Program-made: the position numbers and the translations under genes
Virus record (IMG/VR): IMGVR_UViG_3300033069_001940
Span: 32,001 to 96,000 of that record
Length of the DNA stretch: 64,000 nucleotides
Strand: one strand, 5' to 3'
Origin: a virus
Taxonomy: Duplodnaviria; Caudoviricetes
Notes under the pieces: model-generated
Databases searched by the model: none
What the model saw: the letters and a program-made list of their open reading frames with translations, nothing else
Told to the model about the DNA's origin: nothing
Shown: positions 26,502 to 50,487 of the stretch, one piece after another
Position numbering within the stretch: position 1 is the first letter of the stretch
Layout: each line of letters opens with the position of its first letter

Positions 26502-27635
26502 ATGGACATTTTAGTTTTATCAAAAAAATTTTTAAAATTAGCTGAAGAAATAATTGATTATAATTTGATTAGATTATCTCAAGTAATGTCAATTTTGCTT
26601 GGCAAAAACATTTCTAAAAATAATATAAAAGAATGGATCTCTATCAATAATTTATCTTTTAAAGATTATTTTTATATCAATAATGATAAATATATTTATT
26701 ATTATCCTCCAGGTTATTCTGTATTTTCTGGAACAAATCGGCCTATGGTTGTTGTTACAAATAAATACGAAAATTTGCCGAATAATTTAGATGCCACATT
26801 TGAAAAATTATTATTACCTTGTGGTTTAATTCCAAAATTATTTTTGGTTGCTGGAAATACTTTCAAAGTATCAAAAGACCCTAAAATTTTTTCAGAAAAT
26901 AATTTTATTATAAAATCTATAAGGGCATTAACGAAATTTTCAGATGAAGAAATATTAAAGTTATTGACGGATAATAAAGAAAAAATAGATTCTATTAGAA
27001 GGTTGATTCAAATGCAACCAGAATATCTTGGCGGTGGAGTAGATGGCGAAGCATACAAAATCAATAATTCTATGGTTTTAAAAATATTTGTTAATAATTT
27101 TGCTTATATAAAAGCGAAAGAATCGCAGGATCTGTTATTTAAAAATCCAAATCTGGCAGGCACAGAGGCTATGATTTATGATGTTGGAGAATTTAAAAAT
27201 GATATTTACCCAATCTATTATTACATTATAGAGCTATTTAAAATACCTAAAGATCGAGATAATTTAGATTATGTTATTAGAAATATTGAATCAACAATTT
27301 CATTTATTGAATGGAGATCTAAATTTGAAATTAAAAAAATAAGACTAGAATATTATAATAAAGAAATTACAGAATCAGATTTTAAAAATAAATTAAAATT
27401 ATTTACTGAATTAGTTTATAGGCAATTAATGCAGTCAAATCCTTTTATATCCAGAATGAAAATTATGCAAAAAGAAGAAGGCTTGTCTAAAGATTGGTTA
27501 AAAAGAATAATAAAAGAAGTTATTTTTAAAAAAATTACTGAAAGAAATGATTTACATTCTGGTAATTTAGGTGTTAATCAACGCGGTCATTTAAGATATT
27601 TTGATCCAGCTTTTAAAACATTAAATGTGCTTTAG
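26502..27635 (+). CDS. Protein kinase-like protein 1 (T7 Gp0.7-like motifs)
   Basis: [28 protein letters not shown]. Start moved to the ATG downstream of the terminator. Confidence 0.75.
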
Positions 27636-27655
27636 GCATATTTTTCTATGTAAAC

Positions 27656-28759
27656 ATGTATAATTTCTCGTTAAATTTATCAAAAAATTTTTTAAAATTA
27701 GCGGAAGAACTTCATTTATACGAAGTAATTCGTTTAAAAAAAGTTTTATCAAGATTTCTTGCAAAAAATCTTTTAGATGAAGATGTTAAAGAATGGTATA
27801 AAATTAACAATTTAGATATTATTTTGAATTATTATAATAATGATATTGATGCAATTTTTGTATTAACAAATAATAATAAAAACGCATTAATTACTTGGCC
27901 AAATCATAAATTAAACATTGATGCCGCTTTTGAAAAATTATTATTGCCACATAAAAATATTCCAAAATTATTATTTGCTATTGGGGAAGTAGTTGAACAA
28001 AATATTCCAAAGAATGTTGCTGAAAATGAATTTATGTATGTAGCTTTAAAACAACTTTTACGTATGACTCCAGAAGATTGTTCAATAATTTTAAATAAAA
28101 ACAAAGAAAAAATAAATTCAATTAGATCATTTTTTCAATTTAAACCAAAATATTTAGGCGCCGGCATCGATGGCGTAGCATTTAAAATTAATGATTCTAT
28201 GGTATTAAAAATATTTAAAAGCGAATTTGCTTATGAAAAAATACAAAATTCTCAACAGTTATTATTTGAAAATAAAGACTTGGCAGAAACAGAGATTATG
28301 ACTTATGATTACGGAGAATTAAATCTATTTTATGATAAAAAGATATATTATTGTATAAATCAATTAGTTAAAACTTTTCCATATAGTTCGCATAGTGATG
28401 ATTTAATTAAAGACGTAGTAAGTCAAATTAAAGAATATATTAATATCAATTTATATAATAAATTAATAGAATTATATAATAAATATAATTTAAAATTAAT
28501 AAAAGATTTAGAATTAAAAGAACAAATAATCTTATTATCTAATAATGTATATAATAATTTAAAAAGCTATATTAATAAAAGCGTTCTTGAGTTAGAATTA
28601 ATGTATGATTTACAAAATGATTGGGTTTTGAAGTTAATTCAAGAAATTCTATTTAAATTAATCTCAGGCAGAAGGGATTTGCACAGTGGTAATTTAGGTA
28701 TTAATAATCAGGGATATTTTAGATATTTTGATCCCGCATATACATTTTGGGCGCCATGA
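27656..28759 (+). CDS. Protein kinase-like protein 2 (paralog)
   Basis: [28 protein letters not shown]. Confidence 0.75.
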
Positions 28760-28875
28760 ACAATTCAATAATTAAACCTCATATTTATCCTTTGGTGAGA
28801 GGGCGTTCACACATGGGTAATATTGGATATAGTAATATGAGCTATTTTAATTATTTTGACTCGTCTGGGATATAA
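28756..28875 (+). CDS. 39-aa mini-ORF resembling the kinase catalytic-loop segment (remnant or peptide)
   Basis: [39 protein letters not shown]; ATGA overlap with kinase 2 and ends 2 nt before kinase 3. Confidence 0.5.
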
Positions 28876-28877
28876 AT

Positions 28878-30173
28878 ATGAATTTAATAAATATATCTAA
28901 AATTTTTTTAAAATTAGCTTATCAATTAAAAGAAGCTAATAAATTTACATCTTTACCTTTAAAATTTATTAAATATTTTAAAGATTTTATTAATCCAGAT
29001 CTTAGTATGGAAGATGTATTGATTTGGTATCAAAAAAATGAAAATGTTTTCAAAAAAATAGCATCTCGCGGAGATAGATTAACTAATCTATCTTGGAATA
29101 TTACTGATGATGAAGACGGTCAACCTCCGCACTTAGAGGCGGGTCTGGCGGAAATTGTAAGTTATTATTATAGATTACAAACTTATCAAGGGGTTCCTGA
29201 TTTTTTAAAAACAAGTAGTTCCTATTTTCTTAGTGGAACACAAAATATTCCTAATTTATATCTTTATAGGGTCAGTTACGTTGATAATGTTCATGAATAT
29301 AATTTAGATATTAGTCATAATTTCTTTTTGGCTCAATATTTATCCAATACTTTTAATCTTAATTTAGATAAAGAAGATGTTCAAGATTTAATAACAATTT
29401 TTCTCAAAGAGAACAGAGATAAAATTAATGATATTAAAAGATTAACAACTATGCATCCCAAGTTTCTCGGAAGAGGCTCCGATGGTACTGCTTTTCAAAT
29501 TTCTGAAGATTTAGTATTAAAACTATCTACTAAAAAATTTAGTCAACAAGAGGCGATTAAATCTATGAATAGGATATTTAGTGGCTCTGACCTAGCTGCC
29601 ACTGAGGCTATGATTTACGATGCCGGAATCTTCGGAGAATTTGAAGGAAATACTATTTATTATTATATCGTTGAAAAAATGAAACCGTTGACTGGAAGGA
29701 ATACAATTTTAACCCAGAAAACGAAATATTATTTCATGACAATTTTTAGAATGATTTTTACTTATGCAGATGAAATGAGAGAAGAATTAAGATATAGAAA
29801 AGAAAATATATCAGATTTAGAAACTCATAAAGAGGTAAAACAAGAGATTAAAAATAAAGCTAGCAGAATATTAAAATTAGTAAAAGATGAATATGAAGAT
29901 TTAAGAGAGGTCAAAGAGATAGAGGCTAACAATACGGGGATGGATATAAGACTTCCTCCATTTGAAGAAGCTTTGAATGAAATATCTCAAGTTTCCGGTT
30001 TACATGGTGATTGGTTTTTAGAATTAATTGAAGAAATATTAACAAAATATGTTACTAATAGAACAGATCTTCATGTTGGAAATTTAGGCGTAACTAGTTA
30101 TGGTAAATTAAGATATTTTGATCCATCTTATGAAGGTTGGGTTTCACGATTTCCAGCAAATGTTTTTTGGTGA
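28878..30173 (+). CDS. Protein kinase-like protein 3 (paralog)
   Basis: FLGRGSDGTAF, VLKLS, DLHVGNLG, YFDP. Confidence 0.75.
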   Translation: MNLINISKIFLKLAYQLKEANKFTSLPLKFIKYFKDFINPDLSMEDVLIWYQKNENVFKKIASRGDRLTNLSWNITDDEDGQPPHLEAGLAEIVSYYYRLQTYQGVPDFLKTSSSYFLSGTQNIPNLYLYRVSYVDNVHEYNLDISHNFFLAQYLSNTFNLNLDKEDVQDLITIFLKENRDKINDIKRLTTMHPKFLGRGSDGTAFQISEDLVLKLSTKKFSQQEAIKSMNRIFSGSDLAATEAMIYDAGIFGEFEGNTIYYYIVEKMKPLTGRNTILTQKTKYYFMTIFRMIFTYADEMREELRYRKENISDLETHKEVKQEIKNKASRILKLVKDEYEDLREVKEIEANNTGMDIRLPPFEEALNEISQVSGLHGDWFLELIEEILTKYVTNRTDLHVGNLGVTSYGKLRYFDPSYEGWVSRFPANVFW

Positions 30174-30176
30174 AAA

Positions 30177-30584
30177 ATGAATTATATAAATAAAATTGTA
30201 AAATTAGCTGCTGAATTTGAAGAAATGATTCCAGAAACATTACGCACTCCTTATTCTTCTGAGTATTCATTCTCTACGCCTGTAGTCGAGACGGAGCTTA
30301 GCGATGATGTTTTAGAATTAAAAGATAATTTATCTGATTTAGAATCAAAAATAGATCCTTTATTTTATATTTTAAAAAATATTAAAGAAAATATACAGTC
30401 ATCAAAATCTGCTTTAATAACATCTGATAAAGAACAATTATATTTAGATTTAGATACTTATTTATATAGTATTAAAAAATCTTTTTTATCATTTGAATCT
30501 TCTTTAAAAAAGATGCCAGAAATTAAAAATAAAATTATTGAAGTAGCTAATATGCATGTTCAATTGGGGCAACAACAAGATTAA
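30177..30584 (+). CDS. Coiled-coil protein with N-terminal VKLA leader
   Basis: MNYINKIVKLAAEFEE; heptad-rich body. Confidence 0.6.
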   Translation: MNYINKIVKLAAEFEEMIPETLRTPYSSEYSFSTPVVETELSDDVLELKDNLSDLESKIDPLFYILKNIKENIQSSKSALITSDKEQLYLDLDTYLYSIKKSFLSFESSLKKMPEIKNKIIEVANMHVQLGQQQD

Positions 30585-30642
30585 TCAATTATATTGGCGA
30601 GTCGATCTAAATATAATTTAAAAAGCTCTTTAAAAGGCTAAC

Positions 30643-32103
30643 TTGAGTTTAATTTTGATTCATGGTAAAAATTGTGAAATAGTTGAAGAAAACGATATTA
30701 ATTTTCTTCGAATGTTAGATGATGAATTATCATTTAAAATAATGGGCGCACAATATTCACGAGCATATATAGCTGGTCGATGGGACGGGATCTATCGTGT
30801 TTTAGAACGAGATTTAACTTTTAGTTATGGATTGCTTTCAAGGGTAATTGATTTATATAAAAAAAATAATAAATCAGTTAGGATTATAGACCAAAGGCCA
30901 GAAAAATCTAAAGTCTCTTCAATAGATATTATTACCCCTTTGACACAAATGGGCAAACCCCCTTATCAACATCAATTAGAGGCTTTAGAAGCGGCTAAAA
31001 ATAATGATTGCGGCATTATTAGATCGGCAACAGGGTCAGGAAAAAGTTTAATTTCCGCTTTAGTTACTGCACATTTTGGAAAGAAGACTATTATTTATGT
31101 TATTGGAACTGATTTATTGTATCAGTTTTATAAATTCTATCAGTCGATTTTTGGTCAAGATGTTGTCGGAATTGTTGGGGATGGATTATGTGAAATAAAA
31201 GATATTAATATTGTGAGTATTTGGACCGCCGGTCAGGCTTTAGGTTTGAAAAAATCACAAATAGTATTAGATTCTAGTGATGAGGAAAAAACCGATCCAT
31301 CAAAATATGATCAAATCAGAGAACTTCTTAGAACAGCTAAAGTTCATCAATTAGATGAATGTCACTTAGCTAGTTGTGATACTATTCAAGAAATTAATAA
31401 GGCTATTAATCCTGAATATATTTATGGAATGTCGGCCTCGCCTTGGCGTGATGATGGTTCTGATTTATTAATAGAATCGATTTTGGGTAAAAATATAATT
31501 GATATTTCTGCATCTTTGTTAATTGATCGCGGCATTTTGGTTAAACCAACTATTTTATTTAAAAAAGTTCCTTCTATGCGGATTAAAAAACAATATCAAA
31601 CAGTTTATAAAAATTATGTAATTAATAATGATGTAAGAAATAATATTATTGTTGATTCTACAATTCAATTAATAGAGCAAGGATACAAGCCATTAATTTT
31701 GTATAATAATATTAATCATGGTAAAAATATTTTTGACAAAATTAAAAATAAAATACCTTGTGTTTTACTGTCCGGAGCAGATGATTTATTAATTAGACAG
31801 CAGGCTAAAGAAGATATTGAGTCCGGTAAAATTAAAGCAATTTTAGCTAGTAAGATATATGACATAGGTGTTGATATTCCATGTCTATCCGGTTTAGTTT
31901 TAGCAGGCAGTGGGAAGTCGAGCGTTAGAGCTTTACAAAGAATAGGTCGAGTAATTAGAAAGTACGAGACGCCTTCATACAAAAAGAAAAGAGCTGCTAT
32001 TATAGATTTTAATGATGATGTTCATTATCTAAGAGAGCATTCAAAAGAAAGATATAAAATCTATTTATCAGAAAAAGGATTTGAAGTTTTGTGGTCCAAG
32101 TGA
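30643..32103 (+). CDS. Superfamily 2 helicase (UvsW/XPB-like)
   Basis: ATGSGKS, DECH, SASP, GVDIP, QRIGRVIR. TTG start. Confidence 0.9.
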   Translation: MSLILIHGKNCEIVEENDINFLRMLDDELSFKIMGAQYSRAYIAGRWDGIYRVLERDLTFSYGLLSRVIDLYKKNNKSVRIIDQRPEKSKVSSIDIITPLTQMGKPPYQHQLEALEAAKNNDCGIIRSATGSGKSLISALVTAHFGKKTIIYVIGTDLLYQFYKFYQSIFGQDVVGIVGDGLCEIKDINIVSIWTAGQALGLKKSQIVLDSSDEEKTDPSKYDQIRELLRTAKVHQLDECHLASCDTIQEINKAINPEYIYGMSASPWRDDGSDLLIESILGKNIIDISASLLIDRGILVKPTILFKKVPSMRIKKQYQTVYKNYVINNDVRNNIIVDSTIQLIEQGYKPLILYNNINHGKNIFDKIKNKIPCVLLSGADDLLIRQQAKEDIESGKIKAILASKIYDIGVDIPCLSGLVLAGSGKSSVRALQRIGRVIRKYETPSYKKKRAAIIDFNDDVHYLREHSKERYKIYLSEKGFEVLWSK

Positions 32104-32163
32104 ATTTTAAGTTCGTGATAGTCTACGAGGCTCTTGTTTTCAATTTGAAAATACGACACACAT

Positions 32164-32763
32164 ATGACAATTGAAAAAGAAGATAAATTAGTTCCATTAC
32201 CAAATAAATGGTGGGCGAATTTCTTTGAAAAATTCAAAGAAATAGAAACTTTGAAAATTTCTCAATGGAAAGAAATTCATCATTTAGCTTATATCTGTAA
32301 AAGATATAAAGATATTTATGGCCGCCAATTTTCATTTTCTTTTAAATCATCTCCGGGCAAATGCCCAGAGATGGTTTTGGTTAAAAGAATTGGCCCCATG
32401 ATCGGAACCTCTAATCAAAAAATAATCAAAGAGTATATTGATTGGGTTTTTGATGAGAAAATTATTCCTAAAAATATGCATCTCAGGTCTTTGGGTTTTC
32501 TGACATTACCTGGATTAGGTAATGAATTTTTAGCAGCTAAAGCTAAAGCTAAAATAATTGATAAAACAACTATTCTTCCTAAAGAATATCAAGATATTGT
32601 CGATCGATTCGAGCTTCCAATTCAGACTTATGGAGATTTAGCTTTTGCTAAAAATGCAATTGATGAAGCGCCAGAAGATGAATCTAGATTACCATATAAA
32701 AATATGTTAAATCAACTATATTGTATGGGGCTAGAGCCAAGCATTTTAAGTGGATTAAAATGA
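32164..32763 (+). CDS. Hypothetical protein in the replication module
   Basis: Intact ORF between the SF2 helicase and the DnaC/DnaB genes. Confidence 0.6.
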   Translation: MTIEKEDKLVPLPNKWWANFFEKFKEIETLKISQWKEIHHLAYICKRYKDIYGRQFSFSFKSSPGKCPEMVLVKRIGPMIGTSNQKIIKEYIDWVFDEKIIPKNMHLRSLGFLTLPGLGNEFLAAKAKAKIIDKTTILPKEYQDIVDRFELPIQTYGDLAFAKNAIDEAPEDESRLPYKNMLNQLYCMGLEPSILSGLK

Positions 32764-33308
32764 TAGGACAAATAGTTAAGGTTTATCTGGTTAACGGAAC
32801 TGGAGTAGATGGCCGGTTAACAGAATTAAATAATAAAAGATTAATTCTTGATTCAATCGAATCAGAGGAACAATTAATGATTCTTAATCCTTATAAAAAT
32901 ATTATAATGATTAGAACTTTTTCTTCTCTTAAAAAAGAAGTTGAGAAAAACAATCTTAATGTTAAAGAAACTTCTCCTTCTAAAAAAGAAGCTGTGGTGG
33001 AAAATGAAATAGAAGAAAATGAAAGAGAAGAAACTGAAGATGAAATTTCCCCATTAGCTTTGAGGGCAAGAAACATTGCCGAGCTAAAAGCAATGGAAGC
33101 CAAAGCTGAAGCAGAGCAAATTGCGGCAGCGTTAAAAAAACAAGAGATTTTAGAAAATAGAAAAAATATAGACACTTACGAGGATAAATATGGGGAAATC
33201 GATTATGCCAAGTGTAGCTCTCAGAAACCTACCACAAAAAAAAGTAGTAGATATGATGGAAAGAACACTTCTAGATTGCCAGACGTGTTCTTCAAACAAA
33301 GAAAGTAA
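32760..33308 (+). CDS. Sm/Hfq-like N-terminal domain with acidic/coiled-coil tail
   Basis: IGQIVKVYLVNGTGVDGRLTELNNKRLILD resembles the Hfq Sm1 motif (VSIYLVNGIKLQGQI). ATGA-coupled start. Confidence 0.5.
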   Translation: MIGQIVKVYLVNGTGVDGRLTELNNKRLILDSIESEEQLMILNPYKNIIMIRTFSSLKKEVEKNNLNVKETSPSKKEAVVENEIEENEREETEDEISPLALRARNIAELKAMEAKAEAEQIAAALKKQEILENRKNIDTYEDKYGEIDYAKCSSQKPTTKKSSRYDGKNTSRLPDVFFKQRK

Positions 33309-33927
33309 TTTAACCAACGCCTGTGATCGTTGTAAAACAATTAATACTGCTTTAATTAGATATTCCGAAGCTAACATTCCGGTTAAATATTGGAATTTAT
33401 CAGTGGCTCCAGAAGATTTTACTGGAGATAAGGTTCTTTTAAGTAAATATCAAGAAGTGGTAAAAGATATAAAAACCTCTTACCGAAAAGGTATTTGTTT
33501 ATGTTTTGCGGGTGCTAATGGTCTTGGTAAAACATTAATTTCAACTTCAATTCTAAAGAGAGCCGTAGAAAAAGGTTATACGGCTTTATATACTACATTA
33601 AGCGATATAGTTAATGTTTTAGTTTCTGCTTCTTCTGAAGAAAAGAATTTAGCAAGAAAAGAATTAATGCAAGTTGATTTTCTAGTAATTGACGAATTTG
33701 ATCCTAGACATATGGGTTCAGATAATGCAGCAGATTTATTTGGAAGAGTATTAGAAGATGTGTTAAGGAATAGAACTCAAAACACACTTCCTTTATTTTT
33801 ATGTACCAATTCGCCCTCTGTATTGGATTCTTTTTCCGGACCAATCAAAATGAGTATTGGTAGTTTAATGAATTATGTTACTACTGTTTCAGTTCTTGGC
33901 AAAGATCAAAGAAAACAAGGCAAATGA
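33190..33927 (+). CDS. DnaC/IstB-like helicase loader ATPase
   Basis: CxxC...CxxC, GANGLGKT (Walker A), FLVIDE (Walker B), R..N..P..CTN. Confidence 0.85.
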   Translation: MGKSIMPSVALRNLPQKKVVDMMERTLLDCQTCSSNKESNLTNACDRCKTINTALIRYSEANIPVKYWNLSVAPEDFTGDKVLLSKYQEVVKDIKTSYRKGICLCFAGANGLGKTLISTSILKRAVEKGYTALYTTLSDIVNVLVSASSEEKNLARKELMQVDFLVIDEFDPRHMGSDNAADLFGRVLEDVLRNRTQNTLPLFLCTNSPSVLDSFSGPIKMSIGSLMNYVTTVSVLGKDQRKQGK

Positions 33928-35357
33928 TGGAAGAAGACTTAGACTTAATTATAGAAGAGCAAGACCTTAGAATCTTAAAATCAGTTACTTCAGATCTAAA
34001 TTGTGGTTTAGAGTTTGCACAAACTTATAGTGAAGATTTATTTGTTGGCGACGCTAAAAAGTTAGCTAAACCTGTTTTATCTTATCTTAGAGCTTACAAA
34101 AATTTACCAACTGAACGTGTTTTAATTGAGCATTCTCGTACAAAAGAGGATAAGCAAGTTATTTCGCATTTATGGCAAGAAGTTCAGAAAACTGAATTTG
34201 ATCAAAGCGAATTTAGGTATGAATTAGATAAGATTAAAAATAGATATACTGTAAATAAAATTCAATCTCTAAAAGATTTAGAGTTTGGAGAAGACTTAGA
34301 GCAAACTATACGAAGAATTCAGACAGAATTAGAATCTGTCAAACAGATTCGTTCTGGTAAAGCGGCCACTTTTACTCAAAAAACATTAAAAAGTTACGTT
34401 CCAGAATTTAAAAAAGTTTACAATGATAAATATAACGATAAAACTTTAGGTCGTGGCATATTAACTGGGTATTCATTTTTAGATTATGTAAAGAACGGAT
34501 TATTACCATCTGATATGGTGGTAATAGGTGGAGAGACAGCTTCGGGAAAATCTGTGTTTTTAAACAATTTAGCTGTTCAAATGTGGATGCAGAAAAATAC
34601 TCTTGATACTCATCCTTCAGAGTTTACAAAAGGGTGCAATGTTCTGTATTTTTCATTAGAAATGCCATACGAGATGTGTGCTCGACGTACGTTTGGACGC
34701 TTGGCTGATGTTCCCTTATATGCTTTAAGGGATTCTACTCTTAATCGCTCTGAAATGGAATCAATGGCCAAGGCAACTTCTTTTATTGAGAAGTATCCAT
34801 TTGAATTTGAAATAGTTGATATTCCTAGAGGAGTAACGGTTGACCAAATTGAGGCTAGATTTTTAGATGCTCGTCAAAGATTTCAGCCAGATGTAATTGT
34901 CGTCGATTATCTTGGTTTATTAGAAGACCATGAGGCTCAAGGTGATGATTGGTTAAAATTAGGTTTTATTGCTGGCAAACTTCATGAATTAGCTAGAGCT
35001 TATAATATCGTGATGTTGACGGCTGTTCAACTTAATAGAATTAGTTCTAAAAATCCAGACCATAATGAAGTAGTTGGCATGCATAGAATTGGTCGATCAT
35101 CATTAATCATGCATAATGCTACAGTTGGAATTCAAATTGAAACCAGAAAAGACGAGCACTTATTTGCTGATTTTAGGTATCACATAATTAAGAATCGGGA
35201 CGGCGCTTTGGGCGGCCATTCTCTTAAAAAGAATTTTAAAAATGCTTCACTGTTAGATACAGAATATGTTTCTGATGGCATTATTTCGACGGCTAGCGAT
35301 AATGATGTGCAAGATATCTCAGACTTATTAGCTAAGTATAAATGGAATCAAAAATAA
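33924..35357 (+). CDS. dnaB: Replicative DnaB-like helicase
   Basis: TGYSFLD, GGETASGKS, FSLEM, VVDYLGL, AVQLNR, IIKNRDG. Confidence 0.9.
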   Translation: MMEEDLDLIIEEQDLRILKSVTSDLNCGLEFAQTYSEDLFVGDAKKLAKPVLSYLRAYKNLPTERVLIEHSRTKEDKQVISHLWQEVQKTEFDQSEFRYELDKIKNRYTVNKIQSLKDLEFGEDLEQTIRRIQTELESVKQIRSGKAATFTQKTLKSYVPEFKKVYNDKYNDKTLGRGILTGYSFLDYVKNGLLPSDMVVIGGETASGKSVFLNNLAVQMWMQKNTLDTHPSEFTKGCNVLYFSLEMPYEMCARRTFGRLADVPLYALRDSTLNRSEMESMAKATSFIEKYPFEFEIVDIPRGVTVDQIEARFLDARQRFQPDVIVVDYLGLLEDHEAQGDDWLKLGFIAGKLHELARAYNIVMLTAVQLNRISSKNPDHNEVVGMHRIGRSSLIMHNATVGIQIETRKDEHLFADFRYHIIKNRDGALGGHSLKKNFKNASLLDTEYVSDGIISTASDNDVQDISDLLAKYKWNQK

Positions 35358-36547: not shown

Positions 36548-36549
36548 AT

Positions 36550-36870: not shown

Positions 36871-36877
36871 AGGAATA

Positions 36878-41707: not shown

Positions 41708-42042
41708 AAAAGAAAAATTATGGAATAATAGTAACAATGCCGGGGATGCAAAAGGTTGGAGAATTTGATTCTTTTACGGCTGAAGATTGTTATGGTCGAA
41801 GAAGTTTGGCCGCTGTGAAATTAGAAGCTAATTTGTTTGATTTAAGCAGAAAGCAAAGCACAACAAATCAAACTTTAAAATTTTTGTATGCAGAAGAATT
41901 ATCGCCAGGCAATTATCGTCAAATCGACGATCTTGGTTATGGATTATTAACTGGTGCTGCTATTGTTGATAATAAGCAGGTTTATTTACAATTAGCTGAA
42001 TTTATTAAAGAACCTAAGAATACTAAATTGACAAAAAATTAA
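41704..42042 (+). CDS. Hypothetical protein
   Basis: Coupled ORF. Confidence 0.55.
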   Translation: MKKKNYGIIVTMPGMQKVGEFDSFTAEDCYGRRSLAAVKLEANLFDLSRKQSTTNQTLKFLYAEELSPGNYRQIDDLGYGLLTGAAIVDNKQVYLQLAEFIKEPKNTKLTKN

Positions 42043-42051
42043 AAGGCAAAT

Positions 42052-42843
42052 ATGGTTTTACCTAAAGTTGGCGCAAGATTAGATCCGCCAAATGAAAATT
42101 ATAAAAAATTCGACAAATCAATGATCTCAAATTATCTTCCCATTTTAAATGGAAATGTTGATTTGAGAGAATTTACTTCGCCGAGACATAATCAAAGAAA
42201 AACAAGTACATGTACTTGCCAAAGTGCTGTTAAGGCTTTAGAAATCAAAAGAATCATGAAATATGGTAAAGAAGCTCATGTTCCTTTATCAGTTATGGAT
42301 CTTTATTATGGCGCCAGAGACTTGATGGATCCTAAAGAAACAGATAGAGATGAGGGTACTTATCTTTATTTGGTTTGTGATGTTTTGAGAAGATTTGGAG
42401 TTTGTCGAGAGGAGTTAAATCCTTTTGATGAAAAAAACTTATTTGTGCCAACTCCAATTATGGCAACCAGAGAATCTTATATGAATAAGATTTCTGCTAA
42501 TTATCGAATTAGTTCAACCGGAAATGATCGCGTAGATGATGTTATTAATAATCTTAGAGTTGGTAATCCGGTTATTTTTGCCACAAGGGTGGGTATGAAT
42601 TGGATGCTATATAATTCTAATTCTAAACCATTAGAAATAACATCTATGGATAATTCTATCGGTAATCATGCTATTTGTATAGTAGGGTGGGTTGATGGAA
42701 AATTTGTGATAGAAAACAGTTGGGGTAATGGCTGGGGAGATGATGGATTTGCTTACTTACAACCAGAAGTAATAGCTGATTGTGGAAGCGTAGATTTTTG
42801 GGTAATAGCGGAGGGATCGGAGGCTTGGTATGAAAAAGCTTAG
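42052..42843 (+). CDS. Papain-like (C1 family) cysteine peptidase
   Basis: VDLR, NQ...STC, NHAICIVGW, ENSWGNGWGDDG. Confidence 0.88.
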   Translation: MVLPKVGARLDPPNENYKKFDKSMISNYLPILNGNVDLREFTSPRHNQRKTSTCTCQSAVKALEIKRIMKYGKEAHVPLSVMDLYYGARDLMDPKETDRDEGTYLYLVCDVLRRFGVCREELNPFDEKNLFVPTPIMATRESYMNKISANYRISSTGNDRVDDVINNLRVGNPVIFATRVGMNWMLYNSNSKPLEITSMDNSIGNHAICIVGWVDGKFVIENSWGNGWGDDGFAYLQPEVIADCGSVDFWVIAEGSEAWYEKA

Positions 42844-43171
42844 TAGTTTTTTATTGTTTTTGATGTTATTAATTTTAATTCCATCTTGTATTGAAACGCA
42901 AAAGCCAGGCGTTTCTCCAACTGTACCAACAGATACGGCTTTTTGCCGGCCAGGATGTGAGCATTTGCAATCCTTAACTGGAAAAGACGGTAAATTATCC
43001 TGTGAAGAGGCAAGGCCATTACATATGCCAAGTGGAGAGATTATTTCTTGCGAAAAGTTTTGTCAAGATACTCAAAATGCAGGAAGAAACCTTTATCCAA
43101 GTTGTTGGCTAGAGGTTACTAGTTGTGATCAAATAGAAACATTTAGACTACGTAGTGGGCCATGCAAATGA
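42830..43171 (+). CDS. Cys-rich putative lipoprotein
   Basis: MKK + hydrophobic stretch + LIPSC lipobox-like; several CxxxC motifs. Confidence 0.65.
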   Translation: MKKLSSFLLFLMLLILIPSCIETQKPGVSPTVPTDTAFCRPGCEHLQSLTGKDGKLSCEEARPLHMPSGEIISCEKFCQDTQNAGRNLYPSCWLEVTSCDQIETFRLRSGPCK

Positions 43172-43347
43172 AAATTAATTTTGATAGTTCAGATGTTAAT
43201 TATATAGAAATATATAAATCAGATAATGGAACAATAGGCGTCGTTATTTCGGCAAAGGATAATACTAAGCCTAATTCTAGTATTGTAAATTCTTGCTCTT
43301 TAAGCGTGGAACAATTTAATAAAATATTAGAGGAAATTAAAAAATGA
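43162..43347 (+). CDS. Hypothetical protein
   Basis: Short coupled ORF. Confidence 0.5.
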   Translation: MQMKINFDSSDVNYIEIYKSDNGTIGVVISAKDNTKPNSSIVNSCSLSVEQFNKILEEIKK

Positions 43348-43655
43348 AATATAATGATTTTTTAAAAGATCTTAAAAATAAAGAGGCAATAGAACATCTT
43401 TTTAAGATATTTGGTAATTGTTGCGCTTATGATTTTCTTCCTTTATTATCTAGGGCAATAGAATTTAGAATTGAAGATTTGGAACAAACAAATAAAATGT
43501 TTACTCAACGTTATTTGACAAATGATGGAATAATCATTTCAGTTACAGATCATGAAATTAAACAATTACAAAATTTAAAAGACGCTTTACGTTCTATAAA
43601 CGTTTCTAAGTTTAAAGAAGAAAATGTCCGAGAGGACGAGAAATTAAATACTTAA
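43344..43655 (+). CDS. Hypothetical protein
   Basis: Coupled ORF with a GAGG RBS. Confidence 0.55.
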   Translation: MKYNDFLKDLKNKEAIEHLFKIFGNCCAYDFLPLLSRAIEFRIEDLEQTNKMFTQRYLTNDGIIISVTDHEIKQLQNLKDALRSINVSKFKEENVREDEKLNT

Positions 43656-43697
43656 CAAGTTATCTGCTAAGGAAGCAGAAAGGTAGGATACGTTAGA

Positions 43698-44009
43698 ATG
43701 ATTGATAAAAGAGTAAAAGAGACTGTGCTAAAAATTAGCGCTCGCAAACTAAAGAACAATACTCAGAGAGCCCTCTTAGCTTTATTGAAAGCTGATGGTG
43801 AATGGGTTTCACGACGAAGTTTGCGTATTCCGTCAGTTGCAGCTAGATTACGAGATCTTCGTAAAGAACAATATGGGGAATTCGAAGTAGTTTGCAATGT
43901 AACTAGTAAAGATAACCCCTTTCAAAACAAAAGGGGTACATATTACAGAATTAACCCTAGATCTGTGACACTTAATCGTGTCCTTAAAGTTTTTGAGGGG
44001 GTGATATAA
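43698..44009 (+). CDS. Winged-helix DNA-binding protein
   Basis: LLKADGEWVSRRSL...VAARLRDLRK..YG..V......YRI; own RBS and terminator. Confidence 0.65.
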   Translation: MIDKRVKETVLKISARKLKNNTQRALLALLKADGEWVSRRSLRIPSVAARLRDLRKEQYGEFEVVCNVTSKDNPFQNKRGTYYRINPRSVTLNRVLKVFEGVI

Positions 44010-44043
44010 ACAAACAATTGTAGTACATAATTGTACGCTTTTT

Positions 44044-44077
44044 AAAAGCCGGGGAGAATTTCTCCCCGGCTTTTTTC
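44044..44077 (+). terminator. Intrinsic terminator (possibly bidirectional)
   Basis: AAAAGCCGGGGAGA-ATT-TCTCCCCGGCTTTTTT. Confidence 0.9.
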
Positions 44078-44119
44078 ATTTGTCTTTTGAAAAAGATATA
44101 TAGTACAAGAAAGGATAAG

Positions 44120-44773
44120 ATGAAAGAAAATTTTACAAAATATTTATGTCAATATTACCCTAAGTTTAAAGTAATTAATAAAGATCAATCATTATTAATG
44201 AAGTTATTTGTTAAATTATTATTTTTTAATAATTTTAATAAATTTGCTACTACGATTGGCTATACATGTTATCTTCCAGATAATTTTAATGATAATTATG
44301 ATACATTAACAGTTATTGCTCATGAATATCAGCATGCGAAAGATTACGGTAAATTAAAGCTTTTATTTCCAATAATTTATTTATTCCCACAATTATTATT
44401 TTTAGCGGTGGTATTGTTCCCAGTTATTAAATTCTGGTCATTAATATTTTTGTTATTTTTGCTTCCTTTGCCGGCTTATGGCAGAATGAAGTTGGAATTA
44501 AGAGGATACGTAATGAGTTTATTTGCTTACACAATGATTTATAGATATCTGGGAATAGAAAATATTTCAGAAAGACAAATTAATCTGGTAAATACATTTG
44601 AAAAACATTTTACTAGTTCCTCTTATTATTTTATGTGGCCATTTGGGGTAAGAAAATATTTGATACTTTCTCTTAACGAGATTAATTCTGATTCTATACT
44701 TGATGATGTTACATTTTTAGAAGTAAAAAATGCATTAGAATTAACTTTTGAGAATAATTCGTCAATCTCTTGA
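44120..44773 (+). CDS. Membrane protein with HExxH zinc-metallopeptidase motif
   Basis: TTIGY, AHEYQH, hydrophobic hairpin, ELRGY. Confidence 0.65.
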   Translation: MKENFTKYLCQYYPKFKVINKDQSLLMKLFVKLLFFNNFNKFATTIGYTCYLPDNFNDNYDTLTVIAHEYQHAKDYGKLKLLFPIIYLFPQLLFLAVVLFPVIKFWSLIFLLFLLPLPAYGRMKLELRGYVMSLFAYTMIYRYLGIENISERQINLVNTFEKHFTSSSYYFMWPFGVRKYLILSLNEINSDSILDDVTFLEVKNALELTFENNSSIS

Positions 44774-44808
44774 TATAGCTTCGTTGAAACTAACTATATT
44801 CGGAGATT

Positions 44809-46014
44809 ATGATAACATTAGATTGTGGAATTATTGGTGGTGGTGTTGCTGGTGTTTTTGCAGCCTTGCGTATTTCTGAAAATTATCCTAATTTAAAAAC
44901 AATAATTTTTGATATTTCTGCTCCCGCCGCCAAGCGTAGAAGATTTTTAGAAGGTTGGTTGGGGTGCTTGCCTAATTCAAATGGCAGATTTTATGTTTCA
45001 GATTTTGAAAAATTAAGTAGTATGATTGATGGAAGAAAATCGCATCATATTTCTAAATGGGTTTTAGATCAATTAAAAAATATTTCAAATATAAAAGAGA
45101 CAAAAAATCAATCACCAACAGCTTCTTTACAAAAAAAAATAAAACAAGATGGATTTGAGATAAGCCACAGCAATTATTATCAATGGTATCCAGAGCAAAT
45201 TCATTTATTATCTAAAAATATTGTAGATAGAATGCAAGATAATAAAAATTTAATATTTTCTTTTGAAAATGAAGTTTATAAAATTTTAAAAAAGAAAAAT
45301 TATTTTTTAGTTTCAACCTCTCAAGGAGATTTTGCTTGTAAAAAAATTCTACTTTGCGCTGGTAGAAGTGGTTGGAGATGGGTTAATAATTTATATAAAG
45401 AATTTGGATTAGTTACAGAAGACCAGGGTAGTTTTGGTATTAGAGCAGAAATTGGTTCTCAATATATGAAAGAATTTAATCAATCTCATTGCACAATATC
45501 AAATGAAGAAATAGAAATTGGACCCTTGAATTGGTTTGGTACGGTGATACCAGAAGATCATGCGGATTTAGTTTTATCAGGATTTAGGTCTAATGAAGTT
45601 AGGTGGAAGAGTGATAAAGTTTCTTTTTCTATTTTAAATAAAAATTTATTTAAAAACGACGGCGTAAATCAAATAGATAGAATAGCCAAATTATCTTTTA
45701 TCATTGCTAATGATAGGGTGGCAAAAGACAAAATAAAAAATATTTTAAATAAAAATTCTCAATTAAATTTACTACCAGAATTTTCTTGGTTGACAGATAC
45801 TTTAAATAAAGTTAATAACTTTATTCCAGAATTAATTTCAAAAGGTAGTTTTTTTATTCCAGAAGTGAATCCTCTTTGTTCTAAGATTAATATTAAAAAT
45901 AACTTAGAGACAGATATAGAAGATTTTTTTGTAGCCGGAGAAAGTGCTGGTTATAAAGGTTTATTGTTCGCCGCCGCTTCTGGAGCAGCAGCGGCTGATT
46001 TTATTGGTAGGTGA
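44809..46014 (+). CDS. FAD-dependent oxidoreductase (uncharacterised dehydrogenase family)
   Basis: IIGGGVAG, LCAGRSG, FVAGESAG..GL..AAASG. Confidence 0.75.
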   Translation: MITLDCGIIGGGVAGVFAALRISENYPNLKTIIFDISAPAAKRRRFLEGWLGCLPNSNGRFYVSDFEKLSSMIDGRKSHHISKWVLDQLKNISNIKETKNQSPTASLQKKIKQDGFEISHSNYYQWYPEQIHLLSKNIVDRMQDNKNLIFSFENEVYKILKKKNYFLVSTSQGDFACKKILLCAGRSGWRWVNNLYKEFGLVTEDQGSFGIRAEIGSQYMKEFNQSHCTISNEEIEIGPLNWFGTVIPEDHADLVLSGFRSNEVRWKSDKVSFSILNKNLFKNDGVNQIDRIAKLSFIIANDRVAKDKIKNILNKNSQLNLLPEFSWLTDTLNKVNNFIPELISKGSFFIPEVNPLCSKINIKNNLETDIEDFFVAGESAGYKGLLFAAASGAAAADFIGR

Positions 46015-46017
46015 AAT

Positions 46018-46368
46018 ATGCAAGAAGATAAAGTAAAATATTTGTATCAAGACGATGAATTATTAAATGAATCTAAAGGCATTAGTTTTCATCAGCTTAA
46101 AGCTGATAACGAATTGTTTCAGGAAGAGGATTATGTTCCTCAAACATTAATAAACGTTAAGAGAGTTACTTCTAAACGAGAGACAAAAGAAGATTGGGTA
46201 ATCTACCAAGATAAAAAAATTGTTTTGAGATTAAAGGGAAATAGATTTTCTACCAAAGAAAAACAATTTTTAAGAACTGTTGATGGAATGAAATTTATTA
46301 TTTCAGAATATAAAAATGGTTTAAAATCTATTAATGCTTTTAAAAATAAATTAAAGGAAATTTTATGA
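46018..46368 (+). CDS. Hypothetical protein
   Basis: Coupled ORF. Confidence 0.55.
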   Translation: MQEDKVKYLYQDDELLNESKGISFHQLKADNELFQEEDYVPQTLINVKRVTSKRETKEDWVIYQDKKIVLRLKGNRFSTKEKQFLRTVDGMKFIISEYKNGLKSINAFKNKLKEIL

Positions 46369-46508
46369 TTATATTTAAAGGGTTTAAAATTAAAGATAAA
46401 ATACCTCATATTTTATTTGAATCTAATGGTATCATTATAGAAGTTCCTATTGATATTGTAACCGCTGATAGAATTTCTGGATATTTAAATAAAATAACAA
46501 CTAAGTGA
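46365..46508 (+). CDS. 47-aa ORF whose stop codon is supplied by the IS-end remnant
   Basis: ATGA-coupled start; the TGA lies inside GTGAAC of the repeat. Confidence 0.4.
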   Translation: MIIFKGFKIKDKIPHILFESNGIIIEVPIDIVTADRISGYLNKITTK

Positions 46509-46546
46509 ACACTCTCTCGCCTAAAGGCGAGAGCTTTTCGATTTCT
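46505..46546 (-). mobile_element. IS200/IS605-family right-end palindrome remnant (copy 1)
   Basis: GTGAACACTCTCTCGCC-TAAA-GGCGAGAGCTTTTCGATTTCT; the minus strand ends in TTCAC; 38/42 identical to copy 2. Confidence 0.65.
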
Positions 46547-46672
46547 GTAAGAAGGATAAATATAAACTAAAAATTTAAATTGTGAAATGCAATTATTTAT
46601 GACTTTACAATATATTAACTTACACTTATCATTAAGCTGATATCAATTGATATCTAAGGTGAATAGATATTT

Positions 46673-47335
46673 ATGGAAAATGTAGGTTATACAATTTATG
46701 TGTGTGACACAGAAACAACATCGTTAAATCCAGAAACGGGCGACGTCATAGAGGTGTCTATGTGCCGTCTTCTTATTTCTAAAGATGGAAAACATGAGCG
46801 TGAGCAAAAAACTTGGTTAATCAAAGCTTTAAATCCGGCCGGAATTGAAGATGAAGCTTTGGCTGTTAGCGGTCATAAGAGAGAAGATATTACTCATTTC
46901 TCTAAATTTGGTAAAGAGAATTATCGTTTAGCGGCTGATGTAGTTGCTGAAATTGAAGAATGGATTGCTTGCGATGATGTTAGCGCAATAGATAGAATTT
47001 TCGCTGGACAGAATCCGATGTTTGATGTTTCGCATCTTCAAGCTTTATGGAGAAAAGTTGGCTGCGAAAATACTTTTCCTTTTGCTTTGGAAAAAGGAAA
47101 TCGAATTATTGATACTAGACAGATTGCGATTCTTATTGATCTTTGTACCGGCCGCCGCCGACAATATTATAACTTATCGTCTTTGGTTAAAGCTTTTGGC
47201 GTTAAAAAAGGCAAAGCGCATCAGGCGGCTGAAGACGTTCGAATGACCACTGATTTGTTATTAGCTTATCTAGAGCCATTAATAAGCATTATTGTCGAGA
47301 AGTTTAGTAACTGTTATCCTGATTCTGAGGAATAA
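46673..47335 (+). CDS. DEDDh 3'-5' exonuclease (DnaQ-like)
   Basis: DTETT, GQNPMFD, IDT, AHQAAEDV. Confidence 0.9.
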   Translation: MENVGYTIYVCDTETTSLNPETGDVIEVSMCRLLISKDGKHEREQKTWLIKALNPAGIEDEALAVSGHKREDITHFSKFGKENYRLAADVVAEIEEWIACDDVSAIDRIFAGQNPMFDVSHLQALWRKVGCENTFPFALEKGNRIIDTRQIAILIDLCTGRRRQYYNLSSLVKAFGVKKGKAHQAAEDVRMTTDLLLAYLEPLISIIVEKFSNCYPDSEE

Positions 47336-47352
47336 ATTATTTGGTGTTTAGG

Positions 47353-47667
47353 ATGGATAAAAAGAATATTGCAATTATTAGTTTAATTTTAGCTAAAGTT
47401 TCTGGTATTGCTGGTGTAGTTTTAGGATTTACTTCTGGAATTACTAGATTAATGGGTGGCGGTTTACTTGGATTAGCAGCAGTATTTTTAGTTAATTGTT
47501 TTATATTTTGCATTTTAGAAATGAAAAAGAATAATTCTGTCGATGAGCAAGAAGATGCGCTCCAGAAAAATATTTTAAAATTACAAAATACATTAAAGCT
47601 GACTAAGCTGGAATTAGAAGGATTGCAAGCTAAAAGAGACTTAGCTAAGTTTATGTCAAAGATGTGA
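47353..47667 (+). CDS. Two-TM membrane protein with coiled-coil tail
   Basis: Two hydrophobic segments followed by heptads. Confidence 0.6.
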   Translation: MDKKNIAIISLILAKVSGIAGVVLGFTSGITRLMGGGLLGLAAVFLVNCFIFCILEMKKNNSVDEQEDALQKNILKLQNTLKLTKLELEGLQAKRDLAKFMSKM

Positions 47668-48599
47668 AAATATTATATTCAGTTAGAGATAGTTTTAGCG
47701 CCGTTGAACAATTAAGGTTTTTCAAAAAAGAACATGATTGTAAAACAATGGGATTTTATAATTCAATCAAACAACTAGAAGTGGTTGATTGGTTGTTAGA
47801 TGGTTTGTATTTAAATTCTTCTCCAAAAGAATCATTGTTTTTAACTAAAAAATATAAATGTAAATTGCCTAAAGTTAACGCTAATTTATTTGATCTTTTA
47901 TTACAAGATATTGAAAAATATAAACCAAACCTAATAATTTCAGATTTAGAGCCGGTTTCAGCTTTCATCGCTAAAATATTAGATATTCCTTATTGGAAAG
48001 TTAGTTCTTTGCATATCATAGATCATGCAAAATTACCAAAAGGTCTTTTAAATAAAAAAATATTTAATAATATAAATTATCATCTGCGAGCTTTGCCAAA
48101 ATCTGATAGAACTTTAATAATATCTCCTTTCGCAGATTTTTATGAACTTGAATTAAGTCAAGAAGCAGAGTGGCTTTGTCCTCATTATGATAAAAATAAT
48201 GAAATTCAAAGTGAAAACTTTACAGTAATTCATCAATCAAGAAAAAATTTACAACAAAGTTTAAGCGATTATGGATTAGATGTATATGATAATTGTGAAA
48301 ATTTAGATTTTGAAAATTGTAATTGGATTTTAACCGATGGATTAAACTCAAATATTTCAAAAGCTTTATATGCAGGTTTAGGTAATATCTATTCGACTTA
48401 TAGTCCTAAAGATTTAGAAACTCAGATTAATTCATTTTTAATAGAGTATTTAGATTTGGGTAAAAGTTTTTCAGACTGGAATAAAGCTCCTGAAAAAATT
48501 TCAGATTATCTTTATCATTTAGAACAATTAAAAATAATCAAACAAAGTCCGTCAGAATCATCCTATTATACATTAGGAGAAACTATAAATAACATATGA
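47664..48599 (+). CDS. MJ1255-like GT-B glycosyltransferase (divergent)
   Basis: MKILYSV; KPNLIISDLEPVSAFIAKILDIP; ETQINS. Confidence 0.55.
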   Translation: MKILYSVRDSFSAVEQLRFFKKEHDCKTMGFYNSIKQLEVVDWLLDGLYLNSSPKESLFLTKKYKCKLPKVNANLFDLLLQDIEKYKPNLIISDLEPVSAFIAKILDIPYWKVSSLHIIDHAKLPKGLLNKKIFNNINYHLRALPKSDRTLIISPFADFYELELSQEAEWLCPHYDKNNEIQSENFTVIHQSRKNLQQSLSDYGLDVYDNCENLDFENCNWILTDGLNSNISKALYAGLGNIYSTYSPKDLETQINSFLIEYLDLGKSFSDWNKAPEKISDYLYHLEQLKIIKQSPSESSYYTLGETINNI

Positions 48600-49237
48600 G
48601 AAAATTTATTTTTGATGTAGGAAATGTTCTTTTTCATGTTAATTTTGATAAATTTAACAAAAGATTAAATGATTTAAATATTCATTTTCAAAATACCTCC
48701 AAATTGAAAACATTTGTAGACGATATTCAGGCTCATCAAGATTTGGGAATTGTTAATTTGGAGCAAGCTTTAAGGCATCACCTTGGAGTAGATGATAAAT
48801 TCATTCCCGCTTTAGTAGAAGAATGGAATAATTGTTTGCAACCTAATATAAAAATGATTGATTTTTTTGAAAAAATTAAATCGAGTAAGTTTTATAATGA
48901 ATTCAGATTAATTGATCCTAAAGTCGCAATAGCTTCTAATATGGGTGTGGATCATTATAATTTCTTAAGAAATCAGTATCCAAATTTATTTAAAGGAATA
49001 GATGTATTTATTTCATCAAAAATTGGCGCTAGAAAACCTTCTAATTTATTTTTTCAATCCATAATTTTAGACTATCCAGCATACAGAGGGGCGTTATTTA
49101 TTGACGATCGAAAAGAAAATTTAGAAACAGCTTCTGGATATTTTCAAACTTATCATTTTGATTTACAACAATTATCCAATTCATCTAAACTAGATTCAGC
49201 TTTAGATCAATTATCAATGACAATTAAGAGTATGTAA
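48596..49237 (+). CDS. HAD-superfamily hydrolase
   Basis: FDVGNVL, ASN, RKP, FIDDRKEN. Confidence 0.85.
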   Translation: MRKFIFDVGNVLFHVNFDKFNKRLNDLNIHFQNTSKLKTFVDDIQAHQDLGIVNLEQALRHHLGVDDKFIPALVEEWNNCLQPNIKMIDFFEKIKSSKFYNEFRLIDPKVAIASNMGVDHYNFLRNQYPNLFKGIDVFISSKIGARKPSNLFFQSIILDYPAYRGALFIDDRKENLETASGYFQTYHFDLQQLSNSSKLDSALDQLSMTIKSM

Positions 49238-49625
49238 TAAGAACGTAAAGAGTATAATTTCTGTTTTTAACAGTATTTTTTATTGATTGAAACATTCCTG
49301 GAACAAAAATATTAAATCTGCTACTTTCTTTTCCTAACAAGTTTGTAACATAATTAACTCTAGACTCATTAGTTTGGTATGGATTTTCTTCAAAGTTTCC
49401 AAATCTAACAGCCAAACAGGGTTCTTTAAATAAAATGCCAACATCAGTTTCTGGGTCCGTAATGAAAACAGGAACTAAATCTCCTGGCTTTTGATTTTCT
49501 AAATATTGCCCCTCAGATCTGACTTTTTCAACTTTTTCATTTAATTTTAGAGCTAATGATTTAAAGTAACTAACCTTCTCAAAATCATCGGCTAATTTTA
49601 CAAGGTTATAATATTTATTTTTCAT
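49224..49625 (-). CDS. Hypothetical protein with N-terminal VKLA leader
   Basis: MKNKYYNLVKLADDFEK; coupled to the upstream minus-strand gene. Confidence 0.6.
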   Translation of the reverse strand: MKNKYYNLVKLADDFEKVSYFKSLALKLNEKVEKVRSEGQYLENQKPGDLVPVFITDPETDVGILFKEPCLAVRFGNFEENPYQTNESRVNYVTNLLGKESSRFNIFVPGMFQSIKNTVKNRNYTLYVLITYS

Positions 49626-50487
49626 TTTTAACCTTATATTTAGTAATTCCTGGAGTAACGGAAATGGCTTTGGCTATTTCTGGATTTTTCATAGCTTCTT
49701 CAAAACTCATAGTTTGCCCGTTGTATTTAACTGTTCCTCCAACTAGCCTAGCTGAAGAAAGATATTCGGTATGTCCGGTGGTATCATGTGGTGTAAATGG
49801 TGAATGTTGAATAGGTTTACCATTTTTATCATAATAGCCGTATAAACTTAGTTTACCGTCTCTGGTTGGTTGAACAATATCTTTCATGTGGCCAGCAATT
49901 AATTTAGGAGGAGTATTGCCGTGTTGTTTTTTTAATTCCTCTTCGACTCTTTGATTGTATGCAACAGAGGTATCGGAATCTCCAATTTTTGTTGCTACAA
50001 CTTGTTCTCCGGTATAATTTTTGCCACCAATTACTCCACCAGCACTTAAAGGTGCTGGCTGAATTTTTCCATCAGCCGCCGTCCAGATTTGTTTTGACAT
50101 TTTGGTTGTGGGTAGATACATTCCAAAGTGGTTAGCTATTCTTTGGGCCGTCTGGCCGGTTAATGGAACTCGAATTCCATCAATAGTAAGATAGTCACTC
50201 ATAACATAGTAGGTTAATTTGCCCCCGTCCGGCACTTGCACTGTAACAGGAACTAAGTTTTTAGGTGGCCCCATTTTGATTGCCTCTTGATAAATTAATT
50301 CTTCTCTTGCCGGCCCTTGAGGCATTTTAGCAAATTTATCTTTAAAACTTTCTGGCTTAGTTAAAGCGTCAATATTGGCGCCAAGTGGTTCTAATTTTTC
50401 TTTATTTTCAATAGCTTTATTAACCACATCCAGCAAAGCTGATTTCTTATAAAGCCTTTTCATTAATTCTAAGCGATAGTTACTCAT
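49615..50487 (-). CDS. Conserved uncharacterised enzyme-like protein (possible cell-wall hydrolase family)
   Basis: DYL..G.RVP....AQRIA..FG..LPT, AGHMKD, LYGY....GKPIQ, H...H.EY....RLV. Confidence 0.55.
   Translation of the reverse strand: MSNYRLELMKRLYKKSALLDVVNKAIENKEKLEPLGANIDALTKPESFKDKFAKMPQGPAREELIYQEAIKMGPPKNLVPVTVQVPDGGKLTYYVMSDYLTIDGIRVPLTGQTAQRIANHFGMYLPTTKMSKQIWTAADGKIQPAPLSAGGVIGGKNYTGEQVVATKIGDSDTSVAYNQRVEEELKKQHGNTPPKLIAGHMKDIVQPTRDGKLSLYGYYDKNGKPIQHSPFTPHDTTGHTEYLSSARLVGGTVKYNGQTMSFEEAMKNPEIAKAISVTPGITKYKVKNEK

Follow-up and report, generated by a model that had tools for sequence, protein, structure and literature searches.

The capsid-targeting sequence (CTS) of bacteriophage T4 is MKTYQEFIAE. 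A CTS is carried by the T4 internal proteins IPI-III and Alt (Mullaney & Black 1996, reviewed in PMC3012670 and PMC5694885), and it is the only part that the internal proteins of T-even phages have in common (PMC3012670). Two further systems bear comparison: the DarB protein of phage P1, of which 30 N-terminal residues suffice for capsid targeting (PMC9024508), and the ejection proteins gp47, gp53 and gp54 of SPN3US, one of the phiKZ-like giant phages, which have long N-terminal propeptides (PMC5694885). Analysis of a 64,000-nucleotide stretch of phage DNA, bases 32001-96000 of the 125,608-bp IMG/VR virus record IMGVR_UViG_3300033069_001940 (the stretch is called the window below, and the whole record G0), reveals a tag of comparable design: an N-terminal amphipathic helix of about 15 residues, with the consensus LLKLADxFxKLAE and its first residue at positions 3-10, on three kinase-like proteins and on other phage proteins that are otherwise unrelated to them.

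Like the T4 CTS, the tag is a peptide of 10-20 residues at the extreme N-terminus, constitutes the sole common part of diverse, fast-evolving accessory proteins in one lineage, and is borne by few carriers per genome, often clustered; the first-pass annotation of the window was right to name the CTS as its analogue, both being strictly N-terminal, portable peptides on unrelated proteins. Unlike the T4 CTS, the tag shows no sequence similarity to it, no conserved L/I-x-E site and no detected S77 protease; the capsid protein is small and of the HK97 type, the carriers include kinases of ~400 residues, and packaging of the carriers is putative. The tag would work like a CTS, and it is on the cleavage-site feature that membership of the T4 CTS family fails. 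P1 DarB likewise has its signal in an N-terminal segment, and provides a precedent for a large enzyme as capsid cargo; however, the DarB signal is described on one protein in the stepwise assembly of Dar, whereas the present motif occurs on many unrelated proteins across a clade. The likeness to SPN3US lies in the giant phages themselves and in paralogous head or ejection proteins with conserved N-termini, thought to direct incorporation into the prohead; its propeptides exceed 100 residues and are cut at A/S/G-x-E by a known protease, whereas neither feature was found in the clade studied here, which is not phiKZ-like.

A portable motif at the extreme N-terminus

CheckV rates G0 as 29% complete, and the record is therefore a fragment of a huge phage. 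A simple gene call yields 150 genes (97% coding, nearly all on the plus strand) in DNA of ~31% guanine plus cytosine (GC). GenBank phages gave zero matches to G0 DNA or to the kinase protein in blastn and tblastn searches. Two relatives, both taken whole, were compared with it: G1 (406 kb, 95% complete), whose tail-to-helicase region is syntenic with that of G0 at 25-50% identity, and G2 (153 kb), which is far more distant than G1.

Among the 150 proteins of G0, the pattern [LIVFM][LIVFM]KLA occurs seven times in the N-terminal 25-residue segments and once in the ~36,600 residues beyond them, and KLA is the most N-terminally enriched tripeptide in an unbiased count (Fisher p=2.7e-4). The exact tripeptide has zero N-terminal enrichment in G1 and G2; therefore, a profile is needed. 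The kinase-family alignment begins LLxLxxxFxKxA, and the LLKLA[DE]xF that opens many distant members is the same core as that of two small proteins of the window; "KLA" appears from these alignments to occupy two registers of one heptad-like helix, KLAxxFxKLA. The first-pass description of an amphipathic leader marked by KLA thus holds for a portable amphipathic leader of ~15 residues, but KLA is just part of the longer LLKLADxFxKLAE.

A matrix of 15 columns, built from the kinase family alone, picks out the N-termini of unrelated proteins: G0_120794 scores 22.2 bits, G1_322400 21.7 and G2_62346 21.4, with lower scores for G1_283897 (12.4 bits) and win49625 of the window (12.0 bits). With the kinases excluded, G0, G1 and G2 have five matches of at least 12 bits that start at positions 1-12, where 0.39 would be expected (P=5e-5), and three N-terminal matches of at least 20 bits, against zero in 185,646 internal positions. 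Reciprocally, a matrix built from non-kinases only recovers kinase-like protein 1 (16.6 bits) and kinase-like protein 2 (10.0 bits). A profile of the kinase N-terminal domain (N-domain) matches non-kinases only across its first 20-45 positions; therefore, what is shared is a short module, not a domain. Homology of the small carriers to the whole kinase N-domain is ruled out by the same early end of the profile matches.

K, L, F and A (GCN) codons are favoured at 31% GC, the tag codons are mostly the plain AT-rich preferred ones, and an AAA TTA GC core is identical in every copy, all of which would suit an artefact of chance or of composition at AT-rich N-termini, or a DNA or mRNA signal near start codons. 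However, the observed counts are never reached by shuffled N-termini (mean 0.00 matches), the control that the first-pass annotation had itself proposed for the frequency of its motif; genomes of 36% and 41% GC also have the motif; and the peptide pattern shifts yet still fits the profile. Synonymous sites vary, the third base of Ala codons differing (GCT, GCG or GCC) and Phe being TTT or TTC, so that selection would seem to act on the peptide more than on the DNA; this variation, with recurrence at 31-41% GC, rules out a DNA-level signal. An artefact is hardly credible, being largely refuted by the shuffling, clade-association and reciprocal-matrix tests.

All IMG/VR contigs were scanned for DNA encoding LKLADxF with TTA and AAA codons, which returned 82 loci, 36 of them in-frame coding matches. 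Thirteen of the 36 lie 16 or fewer residues from a start, compared with about 8% expected if randomly placed; contigs that share genes with G0, G1 or G2 account for nine of these 13 N-terminal matches but only three of the 23 internal ones (p=0.001). The scan added at least six carrier families, mostly on clade contigs; the new carriers include a K/E-rich coiled-coil protein of 513 residues (L059, 23.4 bits) and proteins of 146, 91, 219, 89 and 131 residues. A locus search with a three-sequence tag alignment confirmed only near-identical copies. At least ten unrelated carrier bodies are now recognized (the kinases, G0_120794, win49625, win30177, G1_322400, G1_283897, G2_62346, L059, L093, L091, L089, L007 and L006), with no detectable homology among one another. 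The motif is strictly N-terminal, portable, conserved and associated with one clade.

We propose that this motif would act as a portable address tag at the N-terminus of proteins that are otherwise unrelated, in one uncultured huge-phage clade, and that its hydrophobic face (L, L/A, F, L/A) would dock on a single common receptor specific to the clade. That the tag is a docking or sorting signal of some kind is probable.

The carriers and the character of the tag

Kinase-like protein 1 (26502..27635, plus strand) has 377 residues, comprising the tag (residues 3-17, 26508..26552, plus strand; 26.9 bits with the kinase matrix), an N-domain of ~150 residues and a protein-kinase-like core. Kinase-like protein 2 (27656..28759, plus strand, 367 residues) is its paralogue at 40% identity and has its tag at residues 5-19 (27668..27712, plus strand, 25.9 bits), and kinase-like protein 3 (28878..30173, plus strand, 431 residues) is a divergent paralogue at 27% identity to protein 1, with its tag at residues 3-17 (28884..28928, plus strand, 22.1 bits). 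Because the three are paralogous, they amount to one independent case of the motif.

The catalytic signature lies in the C-terminal ~220 residues: a Gly-rich loop with its Lys, a D-x4-N catalytic loop and a metal-binding Asp, with G177, G179, G182, K194, D350, N355 and D368 invariant across 26 homologues. The AlphaFold2 model of kinase 1 (predicted local distance difference test score, pLDDT, 87) matches APH(2'') phosphotransferases and phage Ser/Thr kinases, the T7 type included, with a Foldseek probability of 0.99-1.0; the extra N-domain keeps template-modelling scores (TM-scores) low, at 0.2-0.3. No Pfam family is matched at E<=0.01, so there is no match to a curated Pkinase or APH profile. 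The three "kinases" of the window have a predicted protein-kinase-like fold. They share the C-terminal core and its fold with T7 gp0.7-type Ser/Thr kinases and with the aminoglycoside-phosphotransferase branch, but unlike these they add the N-domain and the tag and lack a Pfam kinase match. Family homologues occur on contigs as long as 491 kb. A shorter kinase, G1_298894, has a weak tag, and two relatives seem to have a split or fragmented kinase gene: a 54-residue piece accompanies a 402-residue gene at L007:9613-11348, and a 201-residue N-domain gene accompanies an 80-residue C-terminal piece at L012:9273-10186.

The window holds two further carriers. The 133-residue win49625 (gene 49224-49625, minus strand) has its tag at residues 8-22 (LVKLADDFEKVS..., 49560..49604, minus strand), which its homologues retain in the spellings LSKLADNFEK and LAKFSEDFQK; zero Pfam, PHROG, Atlas or PDB fold matches were found for it. 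The 135-residue win30177, which begins 4 nt past kinase 3, has a moderate tag at residues 7-21 (IVKLAAEFEE..., 30195..30239, plus strand) that scores 7.5-10.1 bits when the protein is left out of the matrices (per-protein p about 0.002-0.007); its orthologue, at 73% identity, retains the tag as VVKLAIDFEE, and a family or fold assignment was not found for it. The six N-termini that the first-pass annotation had transcribed, from the three kinases, these two proteins and, as a looser match, the 290-residue operon partner of win49625 (win50487; 49615..50487, minus strand), proved exact on re-reading; the last of these is not a carrier, scoring about 2 bits (p about 0.1). Judged by their sequences, kinases 1-3 and win49625 are the firm carriers of the window, win30177 is a moderate one and win50487 is none. 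None of the replication and glycan enzymes in the G0 record is tagged, as had also been claimed. The modelled fold of the win50487 body (residues 44-290) resembles that of phage and Bacteroidota proteins, all uncharacterised, among them a cluster with the Por_Secre_tail of the type IX secretion system (T9SS); this likeness may point to a protein that acts on the envelope and to a host among the Bacteroidota.

Outside the window, G0 has two carriers whose genes are neighbours, at genome positions 120794 and 121251. The tagged 126-residue gene 120794 directly follows a wall-related cassette (L042:9116-10770, genome 119116-120773) of GH73 genes and then a gene for an EamA-like multi-pass membrane protein of 138 residues; the GH73 glucosaminidase gene 119659 is above the Pfam cutoff and its weaker paralogue 119116 (E=0.0018) below it, and the cassette possibly serves lysis or wall remodelling. 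In G2, G2_62346 joins the tag through a K/S/E-rich linker to a PG_binding_1 domain, and G1_54109 resembles it more weakly. The non-kinase carriers of G1 include G1_322400 (72 residues) and G1_283897 (188 residues, basic). A candidate for a second shared leader also occurs in G2, where adjacent genes of 109 and 128 residues on the minus strand (L039:10093-10818, G2 110090-110818) are alike only in their first ~30 residues (55% identity, ...LIKIADKQQKIINKLAQ...) and have unrelated bodies; the pair may hold a different N-terminal leader.

Kinases 1 and 2 share 73% identity over the tag, 31% over the remaining N-domain and 40% over the core; for kinases 1 and 3, the values are 47%, 14% and 32%, bearing out the first-pass observation that the leader is conserved even where kinase 3 diverges. 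Within the kinases, then, the tag appears to be conserved about as well as the catalytic core. P0047, which is 35% identical to G0_120794, has a tag that is spelled differently yet is canonical (14.6 bits with the kinase-only matrix).

These comparisons bear on a reading that takes the tag for a structural cap passed on by inheritance or shuffling, a 5' gene segment spread by duplication and recombination among fast-evolving accessory genes and persisting as a generic stabilising helix without a common sorting role. The kinases are tandem paralogues, carriers cluster, the small carriers show weak extra similarity to the kinases beyond the tag, and the tag runs on into a longer helix: in the AlphaFold2 models it forms the first half of a helix of ~30 residues both in kinase 1 (helix 3-33; pLDDT 76-79 there versus about 90 beyond) and in win49625 (helix 6-37, followed by an alpha/beta body). 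However, the tag is conserved like the catalytic core while the adjacent N-domain falls to 14% identity, the 120794 family changed its sequence yet kept the motif, and the tag persists across genomes at just 25-50% core-gene identity, on bodies without detectable homology. A structural cap is an improbable explanation.

The mean hydrophobic moment of the tags is 0.53, compared with 0.50 at the 95th percentile of random 14-mers. Their net charge averages near 0, with extremes of -3 and +3, and positions 6 and 13-14 are conserved as acidic. Most non-kinase carriers follow the tag with 30 residues of somewhat raised polar, disorder-promoting content (0.50-0.93 versus a proteome mean of 0.52). A membrane-targeting amphipathic helix, anchoring the carriers at the inner membrane, would account for the high moment and for the envelope-related carriers and neighbours (peptidoglycan-binding bodies, GH73-like genes and the small membrane protein beside 120794). 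Known bacterial membrane-targeting helices are cationic, however, and this explanation is weakened because of the conserved acidic residues; with a net charge of about 0 and with K, D and E interrupting the hydrophobic run, the tag does not resemble a membrane anchor, a signal peptide or a signal-arrest-release (SAR) sequence, and an anchor on the cytoplasmic face would not take a peptidoglycan-binding domain to the wall. We consider membrane targeting very unlikely.

Destination of the tagged proteins

For the address tag proposed here, the likeliest receptor would be the interior of the assembling head, either the scaffold or core or the inner capsid surface. The carriers (kinase-like enzymes, peptidoglycan-binding proteins, and small basic or acidic proteins) would be packaged and then delivered with the DNA, and the tag would probably not be removed by proteolysis. 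The simplest explanation for one tag on both cytoplasm-acting kinases and wall-binding proteins would be a shared ride in the virion. The positions of kinase genes in the head and packaging modules of relatives lend circumstantial support to a head association: at L009 and L010 the kinase gene is co-oriented within the portal-to-capsid block, at L011 a kinase gene with a full tag is directly 5' of the large terminase, and at L005 the kinase gene is about 5 kb from the capsid gene. As a single guess at the destination, capsid targeting, probably without cleavage, is the best available, and we advance it tentatively.

Several observations weigh against the head as destination. The helix is modelled with fair confidence, so the tag could belong to the fold of its carriers. 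The head-embedded kinase of L009 and L010 keeps merely a stub of the tag, MSQFLKL. The head block of G1 comprises, in order, terminase, portal, transglycosylase-like, weakly tyrosine-phosphatase-like and unannotated 350-440-residue proteins (unannotated head-block genes at G1 189962-195703) and a capsid protein of the HK97 type (G1 187944-188960), and neither the tag nor a complement to it was found when sought in the G1 head-module proteins; the phosphatase-like and lytic-transglycosylase-like genes of its portal-capsid interval (L023:2725-5600, G1 202722-205600) are both untagged. Strong carriers number five in the 125 kb of G0 and three in the 406 kb of G1, with weaker matches at background level, and in both genomes the majority of carriers are outside structural modules. 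Residues after the tag vary (KLAEE, KLAYQ, KLAQN, KLADDF, AAEF) and present no conserved cleavage site. In the 95%-complete G1, finally, zero matches were found to proteases of the S77, S78, S49 or ClpP type (PF03420, PF04586, PF01343 and PF00574), in a search whose S77 controls were silent and which a divergent protease could escape; Pfam and PHROG scans of the G1 head block found no protease either. The first-pass annotation had its leader route cargo, including the kinases, into the head, to be cut off there by a prohead protease. Removal by such a protease is not borne out, whereas routing to the head keeps the kinase genes in head modules and the peptidoglycan-binding carriers in its favour and has the untagged G1 head proteins and the stub of the head-block kinase against it.

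The phosphatase-like gene of G1 is of the tyrosine or dual-specificity kind (E=1.7e-5, 24.9 bits, below the 27-bit Pfam cutoff), and its product and the transglycosylase-like protein are candidates for head or ejection enzymes. G2 has a tandem pair of ClpP-family genes (G002:C1:114631-115770); a ClpP match is absent from G1 and from the G0 fragment.

The position of most G0 and G1 carriers outside head modules, and the loss of most of the tag by the kinase that is embedded in one, would also be expected if the helix served docking or oligomerisation with a common partner other than the capsid, whether a hub protein or other carriers; the kinases might then be assembled with neighbouring small regulators or substrates, in the manner of kinase-anchoring amphipathic helices. 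KLAxxFxKLA is heptad-like, two unrelated carriers have N-terminal helices of ~30 residues, and carriers often adjoin (kinases 1, 2 and 3 and win30177 are consecutive, and genes 120794 and 121251 of the genome are neighbours). However, a partner helix leaves the extreme N-terminal placement in every family unexplained, it gives no reason why wall-binding proteins and kinases should have a common partner, and no candidate hub was identified. Such a helix is the main rival to the head reading, though a somewhat less likely one.

A gene for a TubZ/PhuZ-like tubulin (25108..26436, plus strand; Pfam Tubulin 7e-18, TubZ-like_C 2e-9) is directly 5' of the kinase cluster, which raises the question of whether the tag might direct cargo to the phage tubulin or mediate import into a phage nucleus. 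This adjacency is not kept, however, since ~290 kb separate kinase from tubulin in G1; the capsid protein of the clade is small and of the HK97 type, not phiKZ-like; and wall-binding carriers would be senseless inside a nucleus. The phiKZ shell protein gp054 (chimallin) had no match at E<=1 in G0, G1 (although 95% complete) or G2, in a sequence search without a positive control, and the import reading is weak because no such homologue was found. The same two features, the capsid type and the absence of a chimallin match, make the phiKZ analogy of the first-pass annotation a weak one. Targeting to tubulin or nucleus is exceedingly unlikely.

Genomic surroundings and implications

Gene order in G0 runs from tail genes through a glycosylation island, the tubulin gene, a hairpin, the three kinase genes and the 135-residue gene to a UvsW-like helicase. 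The hairpin (26460..26489, plus strand) is terminator-like, with a 13-pair stem followed by a T-run, and kinase 1 starts 12 nt 3' of it. The kinase genes are without Shine-Dalgarno-like sequences in their upstream gaps (26437-26501, 27636-27655 and 28760-28877), and GGAG/AGGAG-like sites are present before several other G0 genes, tail-module genes included. A scan for sigma-70-type promoters around the kinases was uninformative (46 sites versus 35 +/- 5 expected). Elsewhere in the window, the C-terminal ~70 residues encoded by 50859-51695 (plus strand) match Pfam Serpin (E=7e-5, 22.6 bits, below the 27-bit cutoff).

Nearly all knowledge of huge phages comes from metagenomes, and most of their genes are without an assigned role. 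The motif described here is recognizable in sequence and unites unrelated proteins in a single functional class, defined by common cargo status or by common partners; should the destination be the head, it reveals enzymes, kinases included, that these phages bring into the cell. It is conceivable, though we would not count on it, that the whole huge-phage clade labels its injected effectors with a sequence-defined tag for packaging and delivery that needs no protease. If so, this would be the first CTS-like signal beyond T4 and P1 to be defined clade-wide, apparently one free of a maturation protease; kinases, wall-binding proteins and small proteins of no assigned role could be recognized as virion cargo straight from metagenomic sequence; and the 15-mer would be usable for loading foreign proteins. 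Even with another destination, a tag kept like the catalytic core points to a conserved receptor worth finding.

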